Below are positions 1-49,196 of a stretch of DNA of 58,698 nucleotides, piece by piece (the first letter of the stretch is position 1; each line of letters opens with the position of its first letter). The DNA lies in contig DSDU01000015.1 of assembly GCA_011056835.1 (NCBI GenBank), positions 1 to 58,698 on the forward strand, in the 5' to 3' direction. The translations under genes were made by a program, and so were the position numbers. The notes beneath the pieces are model-generated. The model was not told the DNA's origin. It ran no database searches and saw nothing but the letters and a program-made list of their open reading frames with translations. The DNA is from Deltaproteobacteria bacterium (lineage in GTDB: Bacteria > Desulfobacterota > Syntrophia > Syntrophales > UBA6807).

Positions 1-243
1 CGCATACGTTCCGGTATGAACAGCGCACGTTTCACTTCGCACAAAATCATTTCAATTCACACCCCGGAAGTGCCTGGAAATTTCCTTGAGATATCAGTCT
101 CGTTCAGAATATAATCTCATCCGGGATGACATAAACCGAAGCGTTTCAAAGCCATTATGCATGGAAATGAAACATCTATCAAATCAGGTAAGGCATCATC
201 GTTCCATGGTGAGCAAATAAACCATCTGTGGGAGGGATTATTC

Positions 244-1407
244 ATGAGCATCAGAGATAAGTACGCCATTGTCGGTGTCGGTTATACGCCGCAGGGCCGT
301 ATTCCCGGACGGACGGAACTGAGTTTTCATCTGGAGGCAATCATCAATGCAGTTGATGATGCCGGCCTTACAAAGAAAGATGTTGACGGACTCATTTGTT
401 ACCGGCATTTCCCCCCGGCGTCGGATTCTTATGACATCACACCATACATGGTGGCCCAGCATTTGGGAATGACGCCATCTTTCATCAGCCAGGATGCAAA
501 CTGATCGCGAAGTCAACTACAGCTCGCAGTTGGCGCGCTTGAATCAGGTTTCTGCACGTACGTTGTTATCTCCTACGGGCACAATGCCGCATCCAGTGAC
601 AGCATGACGAGGATGCTCATGGCACTCGGCCAGGACGAGGAGGCATTCGGACACTTCGGGGCAACGGGGAGCTACGCCCTGGCGGCACGAAGGGCAATGC
701 ATGAATTCAACACCGGACCGGAGACATGGCAGCACATTGCCGTGGGCCAGCGCAAGTGGGCAAACCTGAACCCTCTGGCCATGACATATAATCGCACCAT
801 GACATATGACGACTACATGAATGCCCGGTGGCTTGTTGAACCCTTCCGGCTTTTCGATAATTGCCTGGTTTCAGACGGGGGCCGGGCGTACATCATCACT
901 TCAGCCGAACGTGCCCGGGATTTGAAACATCATCCCGTCCTCATTGCCGGCCTCGGGCAACACAACCCGGCGGGTTACCCCCAGAGCGCAACCTTTCTCG
1001 CCGGACCGACAGGGGCACGGATCGCCGGTGAAACAGCATTCCGCATGGCCGGTATTACCAGGAATGATATCGATGCATGTCAGATTTACGACTGTTTTAC
1101 CTACACTGTTGAGATTACCCTGCAGGATTATGGGTTCTTCAAACCCGGTGAAGGTGCGGACTGGTTCCGGGGCGGCACCATCGAGCCCGGCGGCAGCATG
1201 CCTGTGAACACCTCAGGAGGACAGCTTTCGGAAGCATACTTCATGGGCCTGACGCCGATTACTGAAGGAGTGATGCAGCTCATGGGACGTTGCGGCAAGC
1301 GACAGCTCGGCCCGCAAACGGGAACGAAGGAACCGGAGATCATCCTGTGCAGCGACAACGGCGGAATCCTGCAGTGCAACACCACCATTATTCTAAGGAG
1401 GGCGTAG
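244..1407 (+). CDS. Thiolase-like protein (SCP-x/Ltp type, DUF35-partnered) with one in-frame TGA at 502-504 (codon 87). Either a selenocysteine candidate or a nonsense pseudogene.
   Basis: SD GGGAGGG lies just upstream of ATG 244. Track ORFs 157..504 and 604..1407 share one frame, and 505-603 has no other stop. The joined 387-aa product has thiolase-like blocks: KYAIVGVGYT at the N-terminus, ...ALESGFCTYVVISYG, NTSGGQLS and SDNGG near the C-terminus. Confidence 0.7.
506..538 (+). other. Stem-loop immediately 3' of the in-frame UGA, in a SECIS-like position
   Basis: Pairs 512-518 with 528-534 (GUCAACU/AGUUGGC, one G-U) and 507-509 with 536-538. There is a small internal loop and a 9-nt apical loop at 519-527. 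The hairpin starts 2-3 nt after the UGA. Confidence 0.35.
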
Positions 1408-1409
1408 CT

Positions 1410-1838
1410 ATGACAACGTATACAAAACCGATCCCGAAAATCAACGACGATTCCCGCCTGTTCTGGGAAGGATGCAGGAATCGCGAACTCAGATTCCAGA
1501 AATGCGGTACTTGCGGCCATGTCCGATGGCCTCCGGCGATGTTCTGCCCCGAATGTCATGAAAATGATACGGTATGGATAACCGCTGCAGGGCATGGAAG
1601 GGTGTACACCTATGCCGTCTACCACGTGCCCTATCACCCAGGCTTCAAGGAAGATCTTCCCTATGTGGTGGCGATTGTCGAGCTTCCTGAAGGCCCCCGC
1701 ATATTCTCAAACATCATCGGATGCACCCCGGACGAGGTGTCCTGTGACATGGCGGTAGAAGTCATGTGGGATGATGTGACGGAAGAACTGACGCTGCCGA
1801 AATTCAGACCGATGACTCTATCGAATAGTGAAACGTAA
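1410..1838 (+). CDS. DUF35 family Zn-ribbon/OB-fold protein (thiolase partner)
   Basis: SD AGGAGG sits upstream of ATG 1410, which is 3 nt after the thiolase stop. Zinc-ribbon motif CGTCGHVRWPPAMFCPEC is followed by an OB-fold-like YTYAVYH...YVVAIVELPEG. Confidence 0.85.
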   Translation: MTTYTKPIPKINDDSRLFWEGCRNRELRFQKCGTCGHVRWPPAMFCPECHENDTVWITAAGHGRVYTYAVYHVPYHPGFKEDLPYVVAIVELPEGPRIFSNIIGCTPDEVSCDMAVEVMWDDVTEELTLPKFRPMTLSNSET

Positions 1839-2650: not shown

Positions 2651-2863
2651 TCAGTGCTTCCCTGTCATGGTCAGCGTATCGGTAACGATCTGGAGCGGCT
2701 GAAAGGATTGTCCCGTCATCGTGAGCGTTTCCGTGTAGATCTGCCGGGGCTGATCGGCTTTCCCGGTCATGGTGAGGGTCTCCGTGGTCAGCCGTGACGG
2801 AGATCCGCCCTGGGCAAAGCCATACTGAGCTCCCGCCACAGCCGCCAGCGCCGTGACGGGCAT
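2651..2863 (-). CDS. Small protein (70 aa) with three tandem 17-residue repeats carrying T[ED]TLTMTG
   Basis: Repeat cores are ACGGAGACCCTCACCATGACCGGG, ACGGAAACGCTCACGATGACGGGA and ACCGATACGCTGACCATGACAGGG. Differences fall almost only at third codon positions of this frame. The ORF stops 33 nt before the flavodoxin start. No clear SD. Confidence 0.55.
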   Translation of the reverse strand: MPVTALAAVAGAQYGFAQGGSPSRLTTETLTMTGKADQPRQIYTETLTMTGQSFQPLQIVTDTLTMTGKH

Positions 2864-3004: not shown

Positions 3005-4192
3005 TTAACTGAAGAGCCCTGACTGTTCATACTCCTCAATCTCGCTGTCGGTGTAGCCCAGCTCTCTGAATACGTCTTTCGTATGGGTTACCGAACCGAT
3101 GGTGGCTCCAATGCTCCGATACTCAGGTTTTGTTTCGGAAAATTTAATAGGGCACGCGATCTGCTCAACCGTTCCGCCATCGGGCAGGGGAAGCTTTACC
3201 ACCATTTCTCGCTCCTTCGCCAGAGAGTCATTGAACATCTCTGTCAGGGTCATGACCGGCTCAACGCAGGCATCGGTTTCGTTGAAGATCGCCACCCACT
3301 CGTCCCGCGTCTTTGTCAGGATGATCTTACGGATTTCTTCTTTCACCGCATTAATGTTTTTGGGAGATACACCTCCCGGGATCAGATCGGGGCGATTGAT
3401 CGCGTTGAAAAAATTGGTGTAGAACTGGGGTTCAAGCCCTCCGAAGCTTATATACCGACCGTCCTTCGTTTCGTAATAATCGTAGAGCGATCCGCCGTTC
3501 AGCAGGATTCCTTCAAGCTCGGGGTCCTTGCCATCCACCAGGGCACCGGCACCATACATGGCATTGAATGCGATCATGCCGTCGGTCATTGAGATATCGA
3601 TAAACTGTCCCTTCCCCGTGACGCCCCGATGGATTACTGCAGCAAGAATGCCGATAACGGCATTATAGGAACCGGACGCCACGTCGGCGATCTGCATCCC
3701 CACGAGACTGGGACCACTGCTTTTCCGTCCCGTGTAGGAGGCGAGACCGGAACGGGCAATGTAATTCATGTCATGACCTGCCCGCATTGCCATTGAACCC
3801 GTCTGGCCGTAACCGGTAATTGAGCAATAAATAACGGCAGGATTCACTGCCTTCAGACTTTCATAATCAAGCTTGAATTTCGCCATCACACCCGGTCGAA
3901 ACTGCTCGATGACGACATCATAATCGTCAAGAAGCCGATGAATGATCGGGATTGCCCGGGGATCTTTGAGATTCAGGGTCAATAAGCGTTTATTCCTCCC
4001 CAGCATGGCCGACGCCGCGGAGATCTTCGTCCCGGGAATAAAAGGCGGGAAAAAATCCACCAGATCGGGACGGGAACCGGAAACGACTCTCAGTACATCG
4101 GCTCCCAGATCGGCAAGAACCATGGTGGCATACGGGCCGGGAAGCAGAGTGGTAAAATCCAATACCTTCAGTCCTTCGAGAGTACCTGACAT
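3005..4192 (-). CDS. Family III CoA-transferase (CaiB/BaiF / alpha-methylacyl-CoA racemase family)
   Basis: N-terminus LEGLKVLDFTTLLPGPYATMVLADLGADV is typical of the family. SD AGGAGGG lies 4 nt upstream of the ATG. Full length, 395 aa. Confidence 0.85.
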   Translation of the reverse strand: MSGTLEGLKVLDFTTLLPGPYATMVLADLGADVLRVVSGSRPDLVDFFPPFIPGTKISAASAMLGRNKRLLTLNLKDPRAIPIIHRLLDDYDVVIEQFRPGVMAKFKLDYESLKAVNPAVIYCSITGYGQTGSMAMRAGHDMNYIARSGLASYTGRKSSGPSLVGMQIADVASGSYNAVIGILAAVIHRGVTGKGQFIDISMTDGMIAFNAMYGAGALVDGKDPELEGILLNGGSLYDYYETKDGRYISFGGLEPQFYTNFFNAINRPDLIPGGVSPKNINAVKEEIRKIILTKTRDEWVAIFNETDACVEPVMTLTEMFNDSLAKEREMVVKLPLPDGGTVEQIACPIKFSETKPEYRSIGATIGSVTHTKDVFRELGYTDSEIEEYEQSGLFS

Positions 4193-36803: not shown

Positions 36804-38009
36804 TCACTCTAATCGGGAAAAATCAAACGCGGGATCGGAAAGCGAGGATCCGTAGGAACCGACATCAGCCTTCTTCTTTATGGCATGCTCCAGCTCCCGA
36901 CCGCCGCGGACATCTCCCATCAAAAGTGCACCGATGATCCTGCTGCCGGAGATAACGATCTTTCGATAGATATGAGCGGCATCATTTCTGAAAATGATCC
37001 CATCCCCCGGGCCGGCATCGCTGATTTCTCCCGCAGAAAACACTTGAATTCCCGTGACTTTGAGGCTGTTGGACGGAACAGTGCCCTCATACGTCTGTTC
37101 GTCGCCCGCCATATTGAAACCGGCGATCCTCCCCTGTTCCATCGATGCCGGCCAGATACCGTAGAAAAATTCCCTGTGCTCGATGAGATCGCCTGCGGCA
37201 TAGATATCTTCCACCCCGGCCTTCATCATATCGTCCACCTTGACCCCCTTATCGACAGTGAGTCCCAAACGCTGTGCCAGCGTTATTTCAGGCCGGACCC
37301 CCGCAGAGATAAGCACCATGTCGCCATATAGATCCTCGCCGTTATCGAGACAAACACACAGACGATTTTTGCGGGATACGATTTCTCTCGTCGTGCACCC
37401 GAGACGGAAGATGAATCCCCTGTCTTCTAATTGTTGCCGAAGCATTCCGCCGCCGACATGATCCACCTGCCGCGGCAGCAATCTTGATGATCTCTCTACG
37501 ACAGTCACCGTCATCCCCGCTTTCCGCAGCCCGTTGCTTGCTTCGAGACCGAGCAGGCCACCGCCCAAGGTGATCAGCTTTTTCGATTTCATCGCTCGTG
37601 ACCGTATCGTCACAGCATCCGCAAGTGTCCGAAGCGTATACACACCCTCGGACTCGATTCCGGGTATGGGAGGCACATAACTTTGCCCTCCCGTTGCAAG
37701 GAGAAGTCTGTCATAGCGGTAGGAGTCGCCACCCTTTGTCATGACGCACTTTTTTTCAGGATCGACATGAATAATTTCGGTCTCCAGGTGGAGGTCGATG
37801 TCGTTCTTCCCGTACCATGAACGATCATGAATGATACAGGTTTGAATCTCTTTCTCCCCCGCGAGATACTCGGGAAGCGCAGGGGTATAGTAAAAGGGAT
37901 ACGATTCCCTTGAATACATGCGAATGACACCTGAACGATCATTTTTTCGAATGCTCGTCGCCGCCGTATTCGCAGCTACCCCATTACCGACAATAACGTA
38001 GCGTTTCAA
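36804..38009 (-). CDS. NAD(P)/FAD-dependent oxidoreductase (rubredoxin-reductase-like pyridine nucleotide-disulfide oxidoreductase)
   Basis: RYVIVGNGVAANTAA (FAD fold), LITLGGGLLGLEAS (NAD fold) and AAGD. Start chosen at TTG 38009, preceded by GGAAGG. The longer ORF would overlap the rbr gene. Confidence 0.8.
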   Translation of the reverse strand: MKRYVIVGNGVAANTAATSIRKNDRSGVIRMYSRESYPFYYTPALPEYLAGEKEIQTCIIHDRSWYGKNDIDLHLETEIIHVDPEKKCVMTKGGDSYRYDRLLLATGGQSYVPPIPGIESEGVYTLRTLADAVTIRSRAMKSKKLITLGGGLLGLEASNGLRKAGMTVTVVERSSRLLPRQVDHVGGGMLRQQLEDRGFIFRLGCTTREIVSRKNRLCVCLDNGEDLYGDMVLISAGVRPEITLAQRLGLTVDKGVKVDDMMKAGVEDIYAAGDLIEHREFFYGIWPASMEQGRIAGFNMAGDEQTYEGTVPSNSLKVTGIQVFSAGEISDAGPGDGIIFRNDAAHIYRKIVISGSRIIGALLMGDVRGGRELEHAIKKKADVGSYGSSLSDPAFDFSRLE

Positions 38010-38077
38010 TGGGTATACCTTCCGCGATAGGGAAAGTACAGCCGTGGGCACGGCCGTACTTCGAATACTATGAACAA

Positions 38078-38575
38078 TCAGTCGATGCGCTTGAAGAGAC
38101 TTCCATTCGCACCGCATACAGGGCACTGCTCGGGAGCTTCCTCCTCCACCGTGTACCCGCAGACAGGACAGACATAATAGGGGTATTCCTCCTGTGGTGA
38201 ATCAAGAGACTCCAGAGCCATCTGGTATAACCGGGCATGGACCTTCTCCACTTCATTCGCATAGCGGAACGTTCTTTCGGCAACTTTATTCCCCTCTGTC
38301 ACGGCGGCTTCGATCATTCCCGGGTACATGGTTTTAAATTCATAGATCTCACCGGAAACGGCATCCGTGAGATTCTCTCTGGTACTTCCAACTCCTTTAA
38401 GCGCTCGCAGATGGTTGTGGGCATGAACTGTTTCCGCCTCCGCTGCCGCTCTGAAAAGCCTTGCCACCTGGGCATAACCGTCCTTATCAGCCTTTTCCGC
38501 AAAGGCAAGATATTTCCTGTTGGCCTGTGATTCGCCTGCAAATGCTTCCTTGAGACAATCTTCCGTTTTCGACAT
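38078..38575 (-). CDS. rbr: Rubrerythrin
   Basis: Diiron ExxH repeats (AGESQANRKYLAFA, EAETVHAHNH) plus a C-terminal rubredoxin-like CPVCG...CPVCG. Confidence 0.95.
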   Translation of the reverse strand: MSKTEDCLKEAFAGESQANRKYLAFAEKADKDGYAQVARLFRAAAEAETVHAHNHLRALKGVGSTRENLTDAVSGEIYEFKTMYPGMIEAAVTEGNKVAERTFRYANEVEKVHARLYQMALESLDSPQEEYPYYVCPVCGYTVEEEAPEQCPVCGANGSLFKRID

Positions 38576-38609: not shown

Positions 38610-38778
38610 TGTCTCTGCACCATCATCATCCTGGGCAGTATACCCGATAATGACTCATCACGCGAGCCTGAAAACATACTTGTGCTGCTGCAGCGAGTAG
38701 CGTATGTTGGAATCTGTATTGTCCGCCGGCACGGAGTTCGGACATGTATTATTTATTCATAACAAAAGGAGGAACCTC

Positions 38779-39612
38779 ATGGCGTTGGATATGAAGGCAA
38801 TCGGTCGCGCGATTGGTCCGTTGAATCATTCGTATACCGTGAGAGATGCGATACTCTACGCCCTGGCCGTCGGGGCCGGCGCTTCAGAGCTTGAATTCTG
38901 TTATGAAAAATATCTGAAAATTCTCCCGACGTTTCCCATGGCAACAACATTCGACTTTTTCTGGCACATCGCCCGCGAGGCACATATCGATGTGGCGGGA
39001 ATTCTCCATGGCGAGCACGAATTGATTTTCCATAACCCGATTCCCCGTGAAGGAACATTTATTACGAACGGAACCATTACAGACTATTTCGACAAGGGAA
39101 AAGACAGGGGCGCCCTTGTGGTCGGCAGAGCAGATACATTTCATTCAAACGGGGAGAAGATCGTCACGAATGTGTACACGCTTTTTGCCCGCTTTGACGG
39201 AGGATTCGAAAGCAACCCGGCACCAAAACAATCGATTTCATTCCCCGCCCGCAATCCGGATTTTATCGTCGATGCCGCACCATCTCCTGATCAGCACCTT
39301 CTTTACCGGTTGACCGGTGATTACTTTGAACTTCACGTGGATCCCGAGTTTGCCCGAAAATCCGGCTTTGACAGGCCCATCATGCACGGCGCATGTTTTC
39401 TTGGTTATGGATGCAGGGCGCTCATCAGAAAGCTGTCACCGGGGAAACCCGAAAAGTTACAACGGCTTGCATGCCGTTTTTCCCGCCCTCTCTACCCGGG
39501 AACCCCCATACAGACACACATCTGGAAAACCGCCGCGGACGCCGCATTCTGGCGTGTTGTAAATCGTGAAACGGGAGAAATCGTCATCGATAACGGAATC
39601 GCTGAGTTTTAA
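38779..39612 (+). CDS. MaoC-family (R)-specific enoyl-CoA hydratase, double hotdog
   Basis: SD AGGAGG precedes ATG 38779. YRLTGDYFELHVDPEFARKSGFDRPIMHGAC is the hydratase-2 motif region. Confidence 0.8.
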   Translation: MALDMKAIGRAIGPLNHSYTVRDAILYALAVGAGASELEFCYEKYLKILPTFPMATTFDFFWHIAREAHIDVAGILHGEHELIFHNPIPREGTFITNGTITDYFDKGKDRGALVVGRADTFHSNGEKIVTNVYTLFARFDGGFESNPAPKQSISFPARNPDFIVDAAPSPDQHLLYRLTGDYFELHVDPEFARKSGFDRPIMHGACFLGYGCRALIRKLSPGKPEKLQRLACRFSRPLYPGTPIQTHIWKTAADAAFWRVVNRETGEIVIDNGIAEF

Positions 39613-46272: not shown

Positions 46273-47214
46273 CTATAATCGCTCAATTGCCCGCACCAGT
46301 TCCGGCACCACGCTTTTCATGTCCGCCACCATACGGTAATCCGACATGGTCATGATGGGGGCATTCTCGTCGGTGTTTACCGAGATGATGGTTTTTGCAT
46401 CCCGTATGCCCACGACAAACTGGACCTGTCCCGAAACTCCCAGGAGCAGGGCAAGATCGGGCTTACATTTCCTGCCGGAAAGCCCGACAATCCTCTCTTC
46501 AGACAACCATCGTTTGTCCGTAGCCACCGGTTTCGTGCAGGCGACTGCTCCCTTCAGATGACCTGCAAGTATTTCCACTATTGGCAAATCATCCCGGCTT
46601 CCCATACCCTGCCCGACGACCACCAGTACCTCAGCAGCCTCGATATCGACGGAATCCTTCACCTTGGGCATGACCTCAACAACCTTTATAACCGAAAGTT
46701 CCGCTTCTACGGCAATATCGGTGATCGCCCCCTTTTCCCCCTCTTCCATCGTGTCATAGACTTTCGGGACAACGGCGATAACCTTATGATCCGATTCAAT
46801 TGCCTGCGTCACAACAGTTGCCCCGCCGAGGGTGTTCCGCCGGCAGCAGAGTCTGCCGTTATCGATTGTCATGCCGCTCACATCGGTAAGACATCCGCCG
46901 TGGGTGAGGTGCGCCAGTCTGCCGGAAATTTCTTTCCCTCTGCGGTTTGAAGAAAGTAAAACGACCGGCGCGTTTTTTTTCTTCGCCACCTCGCTGATTA
47001 CCAGTGCAACAGCTGCCGCATCCGCCATCAGTATCGCTTCATCCCGTATTCGGTATATCGTGCCGCATCTCAAGGCGAGTTTTTCTGCCTGGTCATCATT
47101 ATTGATCGTCAGGGCCGTGACGCCATACCCTATTTCACCAGCAATGGTATGCGCCGCCGTTAAAAGTTCGCAGGCATAATCGGTATTGTCGCTGTATATA
47201 AGAATATTCCTCAT
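46273..47214 (-). CDS. etfA: Electron transfer flavoprotein alpha subunit
   Basis: Typical EtfA C-terminal FAD domain ...VVVGQGMGS...AVACTKPVATD..W......VGLSGRKCKPDL.LLLGVSGQVQ. Overlaps the etfB stop by 4 nt. Confidence 0.9.
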   Translation of the reverse strand: MRNILIYSDNTDYACELLTAAHTIAGEIGYGVTALTINNDDQAEKLALRCGTIYRIRDEAILMADAAAVALVISEVAKKKNAPVVLLSSNRRGKEISGRLAHLTHGGCLTDVSGMTIDNGRLCCRRNTLGGATVVTQAIESDHKVIAVVPKVYDTMEEGEKGAITDIAVEAELSVIKVVEVMPKVKDSVDIEAAEVLVVVGQGMGSRDDLPIVEILAGHLKGAVACTKPVATDKRWLSEERIVGLSGRKCKPDLALLLGVSGQVQFVVGIRDAKTIISVNTDENAPIMTMSDYRMVADMKSVVPELVRAIERL

Positions 47215-47975
47215 TGTGCTTGCCTGTCCGGCTTTCGGTCATTTTTGAGAATCTTTGCCAGTTCATCGACGGATGTGATGACAATACCCTTCCGCCTGCT
47301 GACGGGCGCCAGATTACTGATCGTCGTAATGTTCTTTTCAGCGGGAACCTCTACGCACAACTCATTGAGGTGATACACTGCTGTCGGTTTTTTTCTCGCC
47401 TTCAGGATATTTTTGACTGATGGAATCCTCGGCTCTTTAATCTCGGAGACGACGCTGATAACAGCGGGAAGCGGCACCTCGATGATTTCATCAGAGTCCT
47501 CCAGTGAACGGGTAACCCGGGCAAGAGAGTCATTCAACTCAATCCGTTTGGCATACCCTACCTGGGGATAACCCAGTATTGCCGCTACGGCGGAAAAGAC
47601 CCGACCCGAATAGTTATCGGCGCTTCCTTCTCCGAAGACGACGATGCCCACGTCACCGATTCTTTGTATGGCGGCTGCCAGCACACCTGCAATGACGGAA
47701 CTGTCCTCATCAGCAAGATCATCATCCTCAATCAGTATGGCCTCATCTCCACCGGCCGCCAGGGCTTCCTTGACGGTGTCCCTGATCTTTCTATTCCCCG
47801 CCGACATGATGATGACACGTCCCTGGGTGGTTTCCTTTAACTCGACGGCCGCCGCCAGGGCGCTTTTGTCGATGTCACCGAGAACCATGGGAATATCGTC
47901 GAGAACGGGTTCGCGGTTACGTATCCGAATATGATGTAAATCAGGCACTTGTTTCATTGCCACGATTATATTCAC
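47211..47975 (-). CDS. etfB: Electron transfer flavoprotein beta subunit
   Basis: MNIIVAMKQVPD...ALAAAVELKE...VVFGEGSADNYSGRV is typical of EtfB. Confidence 0.9.
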   Translation of the reverse strand: MNIIVAMKQVPDLHHIRIRNREPVLDDIPMVLGDIDKSALAAAVELKETTQGRVIIMSAGNRKIRDTVKEALAAGGDEAILIEDDDLADEDSSVIAGVLAAAIQRIGDVGIVVFGEGSADNYSGRVFSAVAAILGYPQVGYAKRIELNDSLARVTRSLEDSDEIIEVPLPAVISVVSEIKEPRIPSVKNILKARKKPTAVYHLNELCVEVPAEKNITTISNLAPVSRRKGIVITSVDELAKILKNDRKPDRQAQ

Positions 47976-48056
47976 GGCTTCATTTCTCCCTGTCCATCCG
48001 ATTTCAAAAAGTCACTCTTTCGCTGATTCTCACCTTTTCCATAAGCGCACCGTATT

Positions 48057-49196
48057 CTACTCCCGCAGGATCGTTCCGGCGACGATCATCTTCTGCATGT
48101 CTCCCACGCCTTCTATCTGGGGACCGATGATGGCATCACGATACAGACTCTGGACTTTATAGTCACTCATGACCCCGTAAGATCCGTGAATATCCACGGC
48201 GACGCGAGTAACATCGACGGCATTTTCGCATACGAAACTTTTCGTCAACGCCGCCTCCCTGGCAAACGTCATGGGGTCTTTCACATTATTGGCAAGACAG
48301 CCGAGGCGGTAGGTGAGCCATCGAGCCGCTTCCAGTTTTATTGCAAGTTCTCCGACCCGGAGCTGCATGGCCTGAAACTTGGCGATGGACTGCCCCCTGT
48401 GTTTCTTTTCCATGGCATATTTCACAGCCTCCTCATAGGCACGAAGTGTGATCCCGAGATAGGTGGAACTGATCCCTATTTTGCCGTAGGCAATGCCGGA
48501 AAGAAGAATATTGAATCCACGGCCGACCTTCCCGAGCATATTTTCAGCGGGAATTCTCACATTCTTCAAATAGACGTCGACAATCCTGTTGCCCTTCAGC
48601 CCGATTTTATCCCACGCTTCGGAGATGGAATACCCCGCGCAGAACTTGTCCACAATAAATGCCGTTACTTCATCACTTTCGCTTTCACGGGCAAAGACGA
48701 CGATTGGACCGTGGAAATTCGCATTGGAGATAAACCGTTTCGTTCCATTGATGACGTAGGAATCACCCTCCCTGATTGCCATCGTGGTTATCTGCCGGGG
48801 ATCGGAACCGGTTCCCGGTTCGGTAAAAGCGAATGAAGCCAACAGTTCGCCCGTCAGACCCGGTTCCATGTATTTTTCCTTCTGCTCTTTCGTTCCGTAT
48901 GTGCAGATCGCACCGAGCCCGAGTCCGTTTACCGACAGAATCATGGAAACACCGGAAGATACGCGTGCTATCTGTTCCATGGCAAGGACATATCCGTCAT
49001 ACCCACCGTCGGAACCGCCCCATTCTTCGGCAAACTGTATCCCAAAGAGTTCCAGCTCCGCCATACGATCTATGATTTGACGGGGCACATCGTTTTCATC
49101 CTCAATCCGCCGGACAAGTGGTTCTATATACTTCTCAGCAAAATCCCGGGCCGTGTTCCGTATCAATAACTGTTCCTTGCTCAAGGTAAAATCCAT
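48057..49196 (-). CDS. Acyl-CoA dehydrogenase
   Basis: FAFTEPGTGSDP, INGTKRFISNA and QIHGSYGVMSDY..QSLYRDA...QIEGVGDMQ are ACAD hallmarks. It is the first gene of the acd-etfB-etfA operon. Confidence 0.9.
   Translation of the reverse strand: MDFTLSKEQLLIRNTARDFAEKYIEPLVRRIEDENDVPRQIIDRMAELELFGIQFAEEWGGSDGGYDGYVLAMEQIARVSSGVSMILSVNGLGLGAICTYGTKEQKEKYMEPGLTGELLASFAFTEPGTGSDPRQITTMAIREGDSYVINGTKRFISNANFHGPIVVFARESESDEVTAFIVDKFCAGYSISEAWDKIGLKGNRIVDVYLKNVRIPAENMLGKVGRGFNILLSGIAYGKIGISSTYLGITLRAYEEAVKYAMEKKHRGQSIAKFQAMQLRVGELAIKLEAARWLTYRLGCLANNVKDPMTFAREAALTKSFVCENAVDVTRVAVDIHGSYGVMSDYKVQSLYRDAIIGPQIEGVGDMQKMIVAGTILRE

Follow-up and report, generated by a model that had tools for sequence, protein, structure and literature searches.

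An In-Frame UGA, Predicted to Encode Selenocysteine, at the Nucleophile-Cysteine Column of a Thiolase-Superfamily Gene of Desulfobacterota

Does translation of a bacterial thiolase-superfamily gene continue through an in-frame UGA, and if so, is selenocysteine (Sec) inserted there? This question is raised by a locus at the beginning of contig DSDU01000015.1 (assembly GCA_011056835.1, a deltaproteobacterium of the Syntrophales), the 58,698 nt of which are referred to as the window. A TGA codon at 502..504 (+ strand) interrupts a gene for a thiolase-like protein. A preliminary description of this locus had suggested that the UGA specifies Sec in place of the nucleophilic Cys, and had named a recent nonsense mutation or a base-call error as alternatives. 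Comparison with related genes leads us to the view that UGA 502-504 does encode Sec at the nucleophile-Cys column of a functional gene, a reading to which we assign a probability of about 0.9 on the basis of sequence data.

The Split Gene, the UGA Column and the Selection Acting on Both Sides

When the UGA is read through, the thiolase-superfamily gene extends from 244 to 1407 on the + strand and comprises 387 codons plus stop. The TGA at 502..504, proposed Sec codon 87, is in frame with the ATG at 244 and the TAG at 1405-1407 and is the sole stop between them. The open reading frames (ORFs) 157..504 and 604..1407 share one frame, and gene callers break the gene into two ORFs of 115 aa and 267 aa; these coordinates, and the 387-aa thiolase-like product that the preliminary description had derived from them, were confirmed. 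A Shine-Dalgarno sequence (GGAGG, 231..235, + strand), read from the sequence, is located 8 nt before the ATG, and Met is found at the aligned position in 106 of 136 orthologues. The read-through protein is SCP2/Ltp-like, with a match to Pfam Thiolase_C_1 in its C-terminal part (5.9e-39). Its residues 4-386 align to the solved structure 4u4e (E 5.7e-67), and further matches to proteins of the thiolase fold were obtained for Ltp2 (6ok1, E 7.7e-52), Sal (9myr, E 3.2e-49) and an acetyl-CoA acetyltransferase (7yvy, E 1.2e-30). The alignment to 4u4e spans the TGA, in agreement with the earlier statement that family-like sequence is kept on both sides of the stop.

The UGA column is occupied by Cys in all of the 120 best full-length homologues (65-74% identity, about 386 aa), within the motif DAN-C-SRS. 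The preliminary description had placed the UGA on the catalytic-Cys column while allowing for an indel nearby; in the pairwise alignment to 7yvy the column falls on the Cys of the AACASG motif with no indel, and this placement therefore stands. Orthologous loci with TGA at this position yielded 136 distinct full-length genes (63-99% mutual identity, median 72%), referred to as Sec forms or Sec genes below, and in the combined alignment column 87 contains 136 U and 120 C and no other residue. In the structurally closest proteins our alignments give Gly (4u4e), Ala (Ltp2) and Ser (Sal) at this column. Since it is not Cys there, the presence of Cys or Sec is a clade-specific feature.

To describe the distribution of the TGA-bearing gene, we used the degenerate DNA pattern A-Q-x-L-G-x-x-P-x5-[DE]-A-N-TGA-x-R (about 42 bits), in which one residue is constrained downstream of the TGA. 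It matched once in the window and never in shuffled sequence. Among 596 Gb of species-representative genomes it was found in 76 stretches, each from a different GTDB species genome, while only about 0.3 chance matches are expected according to our estimate, and at least 119 stretches were found in JGI metagenomes. Almost all genome matches belong to Desulfobacterota or 'Deltaproteobacteria', and the carriers include Syntrophales, Smithella, Syntrophus, Desulfobacteraceae, Desulfatitalea, Desulfatiglandales, Desulfomonilia and Desulfarculaceae. Among them are two isolates in culture, Desulfatibacillum alkenivorans DSM 16219 (locus NZ_FQZU01000013.1) and Desulfatitalea alkaliphila M08but. Among the matches listed, a stop symbol ('*') was opposite residue 87 in 197 high-scoring segment pairs from tblastn, and in 151 loci the frame is open for 85 codons or more ahead of the TGA and for 290 or more behind it, nearly always for exactly 300; the loci with shorter frames were mostly cut by contig ends.

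The ratio of non-synonymous to synonymous substitution rates (dN/dS) was determined for seven orthologues with TGA whose proteins share 84-92% identity with that of the window. It was 0.04-0.06 upstream as well as downstream of the TGA, at a dS of about 0.7-1.7. Two codons past the UGA, Arg89 is 100% conserved although it is encoded by AGG, CGC, CGA or AGA; an invariant residue specified by four different codons argues for a frame that is translated straight through the UGA. A look-up of the protein encoded downstream (DUF35, see below) revealed the identical split gene, with 100% identity, in two other assemblies (ENA ERZ27245514 and JGI 3300022547), and the TGA is also kept in a strain variant with 98.5% identity (L003, ENA ERZ27252301). 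In the thiolase frame this variant differs at 17 nt, 6 upstream and 11 downstream of the TGA. Of these differences, 14 are synonymous and in third position, and 3 are non-synonymous, resulting in M76I and H230S. The probability of at least 14 synonymous differences out of 17 under neutrality is about 1e-6 (binomial estimate, with synonymous sites taken as roughly one quarter of the total). Among named relatives, the window gene is closest, at 92% identity, to that of an uncultured Syntrophaceae metagenome-assembled genome (MAG; L155).

These data bear on both alternatives named at the outset. A recent pseudogene, inactivated by a TGC/TGT-to-TGA nonsense mutation, would require only one transversion in a Cys codon, and the split ORFs reported by gene callers are compatible with it. 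It is hard to reconcile with the occurrence of the same TGA, followed by about 300 open codons, in no fewer than 76 species and no fewer than 119 metagenome contigs, with a dN/dS of about 0.05 downstream as well as upstream of the TGA, with the lack of frameshifts and of any dN/dS near 1 in the downstream part of close relatives, or with the 14 synonymous versus 3 non-synonymous differences in the strain variant. A sequencing or assembly error concealing a true TGC or TGT has in its favour the general prior that single-base errors occur, while identical sequences in independent ENA, JGI and Logan assemblies, a diverged strain with the same TGA, and hundreds of independently assembled orthologues with this codon stand against it. 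Conservation of the TGA together with purifying selection on both sides excludes these two explanations for practical purposes: we leave a very slight chance to the pseudogene and a slighter one still to the error.

A Conserved Hairpin Downstream of the UGA and the Capacity for Sec Decoding

Bacterial Sec codons are recognised with the help of an element termed selenocysteine insertion sequence (SECIS), and the preliminary description had pointed to a hairpin directly downstream of the UGA. We calculated the entropy of synonymous codon usage for the 136 Sec genes, which has a mean of 1.74 bits over 136 conserved columns with four-fold or six-fold degeneracy. It collapses at codons 93-98, and codons 97, 96 and 95 rank first, third and fifth lowest among the comparable columns. 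Gln93 is CAG in 99 of 101 cases, His94 is CAC in 130/133, Ala95 is GCA in 112/136, Val96 is GTT in 115/136, Gly97 is GGC in 129/129 and Val98 is GTG in 82/82; Leu99 is always CTN. The use of GCA at codon 95 differs from Ala elsewhere in the gene, for which GCC is preferred.

Codons 93-99 fold into the hairpin A-GCACGC-[AGUUG]-GCGUGC-U, which in the window is located at 521..539 (+ strand), with the stem 521-527/533-539, the loop AGUUG at 528-532 and a U.C mismatch at 524/536. We regard it as the SECIS candidate of the family. Base pairs were scored in 117 distinct sequences, with offsets counted from the T of the TGA. Pairs 21/35, 24/32 and 25/31 are formed in all 117 sequences, pair 23/33 in 116, pair 20/36 in 111 and pair 19/37 in 93, while at 22/34 there is A-U in 74, A.C in 42 and U.C in one, the window sequence. 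The loop is AGUUG in 91 sequences, GGUCG in 11, CGUGG in 6, AGUUA in 4, CGUUG in 3 and CGUGA in 2, giving the consensus NGUNR, in which the second position is G and the third is U throughout. A conserved hairpin downstream of the UGA is thus present in the relatives as well, at 521-539 in window coordinates and with core pairs formed in 116-117 of 117 sequences.

The model for bacterial SECIS elements (bSECIS) comprises an apical loop of 3-9 nt, an upper stem of 4-16 bp and a spacing of 16-37 nt between UGA and loop (PMC13188914), and it calls for a G and then a G or U among the first positions of the loop (Zhang and Gladyshev, summarised in PMC13188914). With its 5-nt NGUNR loop, its stem of 6-7 bp and a loop that starts 23 nt after the UGA, the conserved hairpin is in accordance with this model. 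For the 23-nt segment, the minimum free energy (MFE) averages −9.8 kcal/mol over the family and is −11.6 kcal/mol for a typical member, compared to a bSECIS threshold of −7.5 or lower, and the hairpin is predicted with P>0.5 in 100 of the 117 sequences. The RNA structure also leaves its mark on the protein. Residue 96, whose codon provides the GU of the loop, is Val in all 136 Sec forms, while Leu (54) and Ile (42) are its most common residues among the 120 Cys forms, and residues 94 and 98 are likewise freer to vary in the Cys forms. The hairpin RNA is a constraint on the protein: only the Sec forms require Val at residue 96. A scan of positions 400-700 against Rfam (E up to 10) did not reveal a SECIS or other relevant family.

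Several observations weigh against decoding of the UGA as Sec. Compensatory covariation is almost absent from the stem in the 117 sequences. Since the stem is nearly invariant, covariation cannot serve as evidence here, and support for the hairpin comes from its conservation and from the entropy at synonymous sites. In the window itself the conserved hairpin is the weakest of the family, with a local MFE of −7.1 kcal/mol versus the family mean given above, and it is not stabler than shuffled sequence (z = −0.31). In silico the window prefers an alternative hairpin at 512..534 (+ strand; stem 512-518/528-534, outer pairs 507-509/536-538), with −12.0 versus −10.5 kcal/mol and P of 0.62 versus 0.03, although the loop of this alternative violates the rule that its first two positions include a G. 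Finally, no selA, selB, selC, selD or other selenoprotein gene is present in the 58.7-kb window: a Pfam scan of twenty large ORFs of the window gave no SelA, SelB or SelD, and the only tRNA in the window is tRNA-Met. The search for other TGA-split ORFs in the window returned only noise in non-coding frames and adjacent separate genes.

The alternative hairpin is the one that the preliminary description had proposed as SECIS element. It is indeed part of the predicted MFE fold of the window sequence; as a SECIS element it has to give way to the family-wide hairpin at 521-539, with which it shares the 3′ arm AGUUGGC. It is predicted with P>0.5 in only 12 of the 117 orthologues, and its central pair 516/530 forms in 12/117. 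It is also not stabler than shuffled sequence (z = 0.33), and since neither hairpin surpasses shuffled sequence, stability alone is not informative for so short an element. The particular situation of the window can be traced to two codons. The hairpin at 512-534 is perfectly paired in the window because Gln91 is encoded by CAA. The lineage of the window, together with L003 and L064, has Leu94 (CTC), as opposed to His elsewhere, and this His94-to-Leu change accounts for the U524.C536 mismatch in the conserved hairpin, a pair that is A.C in 42 other sequences. The three strains with Leu94 show low dN/dS, which argues that the gene still works.

Because of the lack of sel genes in the window, we take the Sec competence of this organism from its relatives. 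Using ARAGORN, a tRNA-Sec (anticodon UCA) was found in the Syntrophales MAG AMR_MDS_2927 (L191, 491-588, − strand), about 2.4 kb away on the upstream side of the TGA, and a metagenome contig (L090, 4350-4447, − strand) has another one at a distance of about 2.3 kb from the TGA. Deltaproteobacteria are a classic selenoprotein-rich group, as the preliminary description had also put forward, and for Syntrophus aciditrophicus 19 selenoproteins are listed, with no thiolase among them (PMC1794560). In the window, TGA terminates 7 of 26 ordinary genes. It is thus an ordinary stop codon there and has not been reassigned genome-wide.

A conserved UGA need not be a Sec codon. It could be a real stop, with a two-piece enzyme formed by reinitiation, or it could be read through by a near-cognate Cys or Trp tRNA, the hairpin stimulating reinitiation or read-through without SelB. 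The window with its lack of sel genes and a hairpin that is thermodynamically unremarkable would be compatible with such a mechanism. Reinitiation is difficult to reconcile with the stretch of 33 codons that separates the UGA from the next ATG: it is strongly conserved as protein and shows free synonymous variation, as seen for Arg89 with its four codons, and a conserved start codon is lacking downstream of the UGA. The bSECIS geometry of the hairpin and its invariant loop GU also speak against this explanation, as do the restriction of the carriers to Sec-rich lineages, the tRNA-Sec genes adjacent in L191 and L090, and the exchange of U with C alone in 256/256 sequences, which is the signature of a selenoprotein. 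We consider a conserved UGA with a function other than Sec insertion quite improbable, and Sec at codon 87 remains the reading that we prefer.

Cys Forms and Gene Neighbourhood

The Cys-form orthologues, for example P0001 (Thermodesulfobacteriota) and P0042 (Smithella sp. SDB), resemble the window gene in length, in the invariant residues and in the DUF35 neighbour, with 65-92% identity; they differ from it by TGC or TGT instead of TGA. DNA was examined for eight such orthologues; within the fetched loci only two distant Cys-type paralogues were present. In four of the eight, all of them among the closer Cys forms (P0011, P0007, P0015 and P0001, from L200, L201, L202 and L205), the SECIS sequence CAGCACGC[A/C]GTTGGCGTGCT of codons 93-99 is kept downstream of TGC/TGT. 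The hairpin is lost in the other four, P0009, P0035, P0023 and P0042, among them the Cys form that is closest to any Sec form (P0009). By their sequence, the hairpins kept in Cys forms look like fossil SECIS elements that were left behind by a recent replacement of Sec by Cys.

Sec and Cys forms are interleaved, and the closest Sec/Cys pair is 92% identical. At least 18 switches between Sec and Cys are required according to a crude neighbour-joining tree and Fitch parsimony. The interleaving of the two forms and the single SECIS element that is shared by the family suggest that Sec is ancestral and was replaced by Cys many times. Judging from this rough tree, Sec was probably the ancestral state in the clade, followed by repeated Sec-to-Cys reversions.

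The gene for the DUF35 partner (1410..1838, + strand) starts 2 nt past the TAG of the thiolase gene and is translationally coupled to it. It encodes a protein of 142 aa with a C4 zinc ribbon (CxxC-x10-CxxC; PF12172, zf-ChsH2) and an OB fold (PF01796, OB_ChsH2_C). Its Shine-Dalgarno sequence AGGAGG (1396..1401, + strand) is located inside the thiolase codons R385-R386, as expected from the earlier note of a Shine-Dalgarno-led partner just downstream. When residue 386 is Arg, it is encoded by AGG in 120 of 127 orthologues, and this codon has the second-lowest synonymous entropy of the gene, after the SECIS. The preference for AGG is explained by the role of the codon as part of the Shine-Dalgarno sequence of the DUF35 gene. 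ORF clustering of 136 loci revealed the DUF35 gene directly downstream in 116 loci and as sole conserved neighbour. A crotonase is found in 10 of these loci and is not a general neighbour.

A family III CoA-transferase is encoded near the thiolase/DUF35 pair in the window (3005-4192, − strand) and in the unrelated locus L090 (2067-3401, − strand), and is likewise not general in the 136 loci. In L090, an ISL3 transposase fragment and the family III CoA-transferase are located just past the tRNA-Sec, on the side away from the thiolase gene. Further into the window, a rubrerythrin is encoded beside a pyridine-nucleotide-disulphide oxidoreductase with a rubredoxin-reductase C-terminal domain (36804-38575, − strand), followed by a MaoC/MFE-2-type hydratase (38704-39612, + strand) and by an acyl-CoA dehydrogenase with the alpha and beta subunits of an electron transfer flavoprotein (ETF; 46273-49196, − strand). 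The rubrerythrin, MaoC and acyl-CoA dehydrogenase/ETF groups point to oxygen defence and to a metabolism of the beta-oxidation type, which is typical of syntrophic Desulfobacterota. CoA-transferase, acyl-CoA dehydrogenase/ETF and MaoC in the window fit acyl-CoA metabolism, to which they are not specific.

A small ORF of the window (2651-2863, − strand) encodes 70 aa and ends 3 nt upstream of a flavodoxin gene (2111-2647, − strand), whose frame it shares across a TGA. The peptide motif [E/D]-T-L-T-M-T-G-[K/Q] is present three times in these 70 aa. The DNA copies vary chiefly in the third position of codons, and a repeat was not detected at the DNA level. This suggests a small repeat peptide that is translated. 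No Pfam match was obtained for it.

Enzyme Class, Novelty and Comparison with Known Systems

Which reaction could be catalysed with Sec at this position? Apart from column 87, the motif Y282-D283-C284-F285 (1087-1098, + strand) is invariant in 256/256 sequences, so that the acid/base-type Cys of the xDCF motif is present, and Y332 (1237-1239, + strand) is invariant in the motif SEAY. Y282 and Y332 align with Tyr294 and Tyr344 of Ltp2. The two histidines of true thiolases are absent: Tyr282 is at the position of the His of HDCF, and SEAY at the position of GHP in 7yvy. This counts against a thiolase in the strict sense, and with both histidines missing a thiolytic mechanism is not assured. All thiolase models of NCBIfam remained below their cut-offs for the window protein.

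In SCP2 thiolases the motif is HDCF, and its Cys acts as acid/base. The trypanosomal SLP has YDCF, Sal employs Tyr302 and Cys304 of YDCY, and Ltp2 employs Tyr294 of YDHF together with Tyr344; these aldolases and SLPs have no nucleophilic Cys and are therefore incapable of thiolysis (all PMC12329534). For CtSal, the same paper reports Gly at the position equivalent to column 87, versus Ser in our alignment. To judge by these motifs, the enzyme is not a canonical thiolase, and it is placed between the true thiolases and the Ltp2/Sal/SLP branch. The earlier designation as candidate selenocysteine thiolase consequently holds for the Sec codon at the nucleophile column and has to be given up for the canonical thiolase, in view of YDCF, SEAY and the two missing histidines.

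A thiolase-like acyl-enzyme mechanism with a selenoester on Sec87 appears most likely from the residues that are conserved. According to this model, UGA 502-504 would be decoded as Sec by SelB and tRNA-Sec, SelB being recruited by the intragenic SECIS about 20 nt downstream (stem 521-527/533-539, loop AGUUG). Sec87 would then be at the position of the acyl-accepting nucleophilic Cys of thiolases, C284 of YDCF would serve as acid/base, and cleavage or condensation of acyl-CoA would proceed via a selenoester instead of a thioester acyl-enzyme. The enzyme is predicted to work in complex with the co-translated DUF35 zinc-ribbon/OB protein. The protein could also be a real selenoprotein that catalyses a retro-aldolase reaction of the Ltp2/Sal type or another non-thiolytic reaction, with a different role for Sec87, e.g., in redox chemistry or regulation. 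The alignment of the invariant Y282 and Y332 with the catalytic Tyr294 and Tyr344 of TcLtp2, the match of YDC to the Tyr302/Cys304 dyad of CtSal and the loss of both histidines would agree with such an enzyme. We still think it rather unlikely, since the characterised aldolases and SLPs are devoid of the nucleophile (Ala in Ltp2; Ser in CtSal as aligned here, Gly according to the CtSal paper), while the clade keeps Cys or Sec at this column in 256/256 sequences. We therefore favour Sec87 as acyl-accepting nucleophile.

An inventory of May 2026 comprises 119 prokaryotic selenoprotein families and subfamilies, without an entry for a thiolase, acetyltransferase, lipid-transfer or SCP protein (PMC13188914, Table 1), which agrees with the earlier remark that thiolase is not an established selenoprotein family. 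Thiolases are also not mentioned in a 2022 review, a 2016 survey, the Olavius study, Haft's eight families, deep-Sep or BSepDB. No known Sec thiolase was found in the open-access literature, of which the cited groundwater-MAG selenoprotein study was not covered, and neither a family-specific nor a selenoprotein model for these proteins is contained in NCBIfam release 20. In a collection of 5.8 billion proteins, the D. alkenivorans orthologue is present only as a 290-aa fragment, labelled 'hypothetical protein' (SHJ87351.1), 'Thiolase C-terminal domain-containing protein' (UniRef) or 'acetyl-CoA acetyltransferase' (IMG), and no full-length Sec form was among the top matches of either protein search. 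Within the open-access literature, the Sec-thiolase family appears to be unrecognised so far.

Redox enzymes, typically with thioredoxin-like folds, make up most of the known prokaryotic selenoproteins (PMC13188914). The wider proposition is that we are dealing with the first selenoenzyme of the thiolase superfamily, representing a widespread and uncatalogued family of syntrophic and sulfate-reducing Desulfobacterota, in which Sec has a non-redox function as acyl-accepting nucleophile forming a selenoester, and in which ancestral Sec was repeatedly lost to Cys, leaving fossil SECIS elements. In our judgement this proposition as a whole has a slightly better than even chance of being correct. 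If it is true, Sec at the acyl-transfer nucleophile of a thiolase fold would extend Sec chemistry to the carbon-carbon bond metabolism of acyl-CoA. The Sec and Cys forms, with up to 92% identity, would constitute a natural pair for testing the benefit of selenium in acyl-enzyme catalysis. The conserved, family-specific SECIS and the fossil SECIS elements in Cys forms provide a clear case of an RNA structure that dictates protein sequence, namely Val96. Public databases show the gene in two pieces or as a hypothetical protein that is truncated (SHJ87351.1 of D. alkenivorans, for example), and because of this mis-annotation an intact thiolase is missing from metabolic reconstructions of syntrophs, alkane degraders and sulfate reducers, in which selenoproteins are also under-counted. 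With the gene present in two cultured isolates, the Sec prediction is directly testable.

The arrangement found here is that of bacterial selenoprotein genes with an intragenic SECIS, of which E. coli fdhF is the archetype. In these genes an in-frame UGA is likewise located at the Cys column of homologues, and the stem-loop is likewise inside the coding region just downstream, with a small apical loop and a G and then a U early in it. The hairpin sequence GCACGC-AGUUG-GCGUGC is specific to the Sec-thiolase family and has no match in Rfam; unlike the catalogued prokaryotic selenoproteins, the protein belongs to a family outside the 119 families and subfamilies. A selenium-containing thiolase of Clostridium kluyveri was reportedly described by Hartmanis and Stadtman in 1982, its selenium being selenomethionine that was incorporated non-specifically; this report was not found in the open-access literature. 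To our knowledge this enzyme is the only link between selenium and thiolase. It shares the presence of selenium with the protein predicted here, but reportedly not a UGA-encoded Sec in the active site.

With thiolases of the SCP2/archaeal branch the window protein shares the thiolase fold, an occupied nucleophile column (Sec here, Cys in homologues), the Cys in xDCF, and a partner that is likewise a separate DUF35 zinc-ribbon/OB protein encoded next door. It differs from SCP2 thiolases by YDCF instead of HDCF, from 7yvy by SEAY instead of GHP, and by Sec as the predicted nucleophile. With Ltp2-ChsH2 (6ok1), Sal-Shy (9myr) and the trypanosomal SLP it has the Tyr of YD[HC][FY] in common, and all of them use a DUF35 partner. 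Ltp2 and Sal are among the closest solved structures, and the Tyr of GEAY in Ltp2 is also shared with the window protein. Ltp2, Sal and SLP, however, have no nucleophilic Cys, while the Sec-thiolase clade invariably keeps Cys or Sec at this position.

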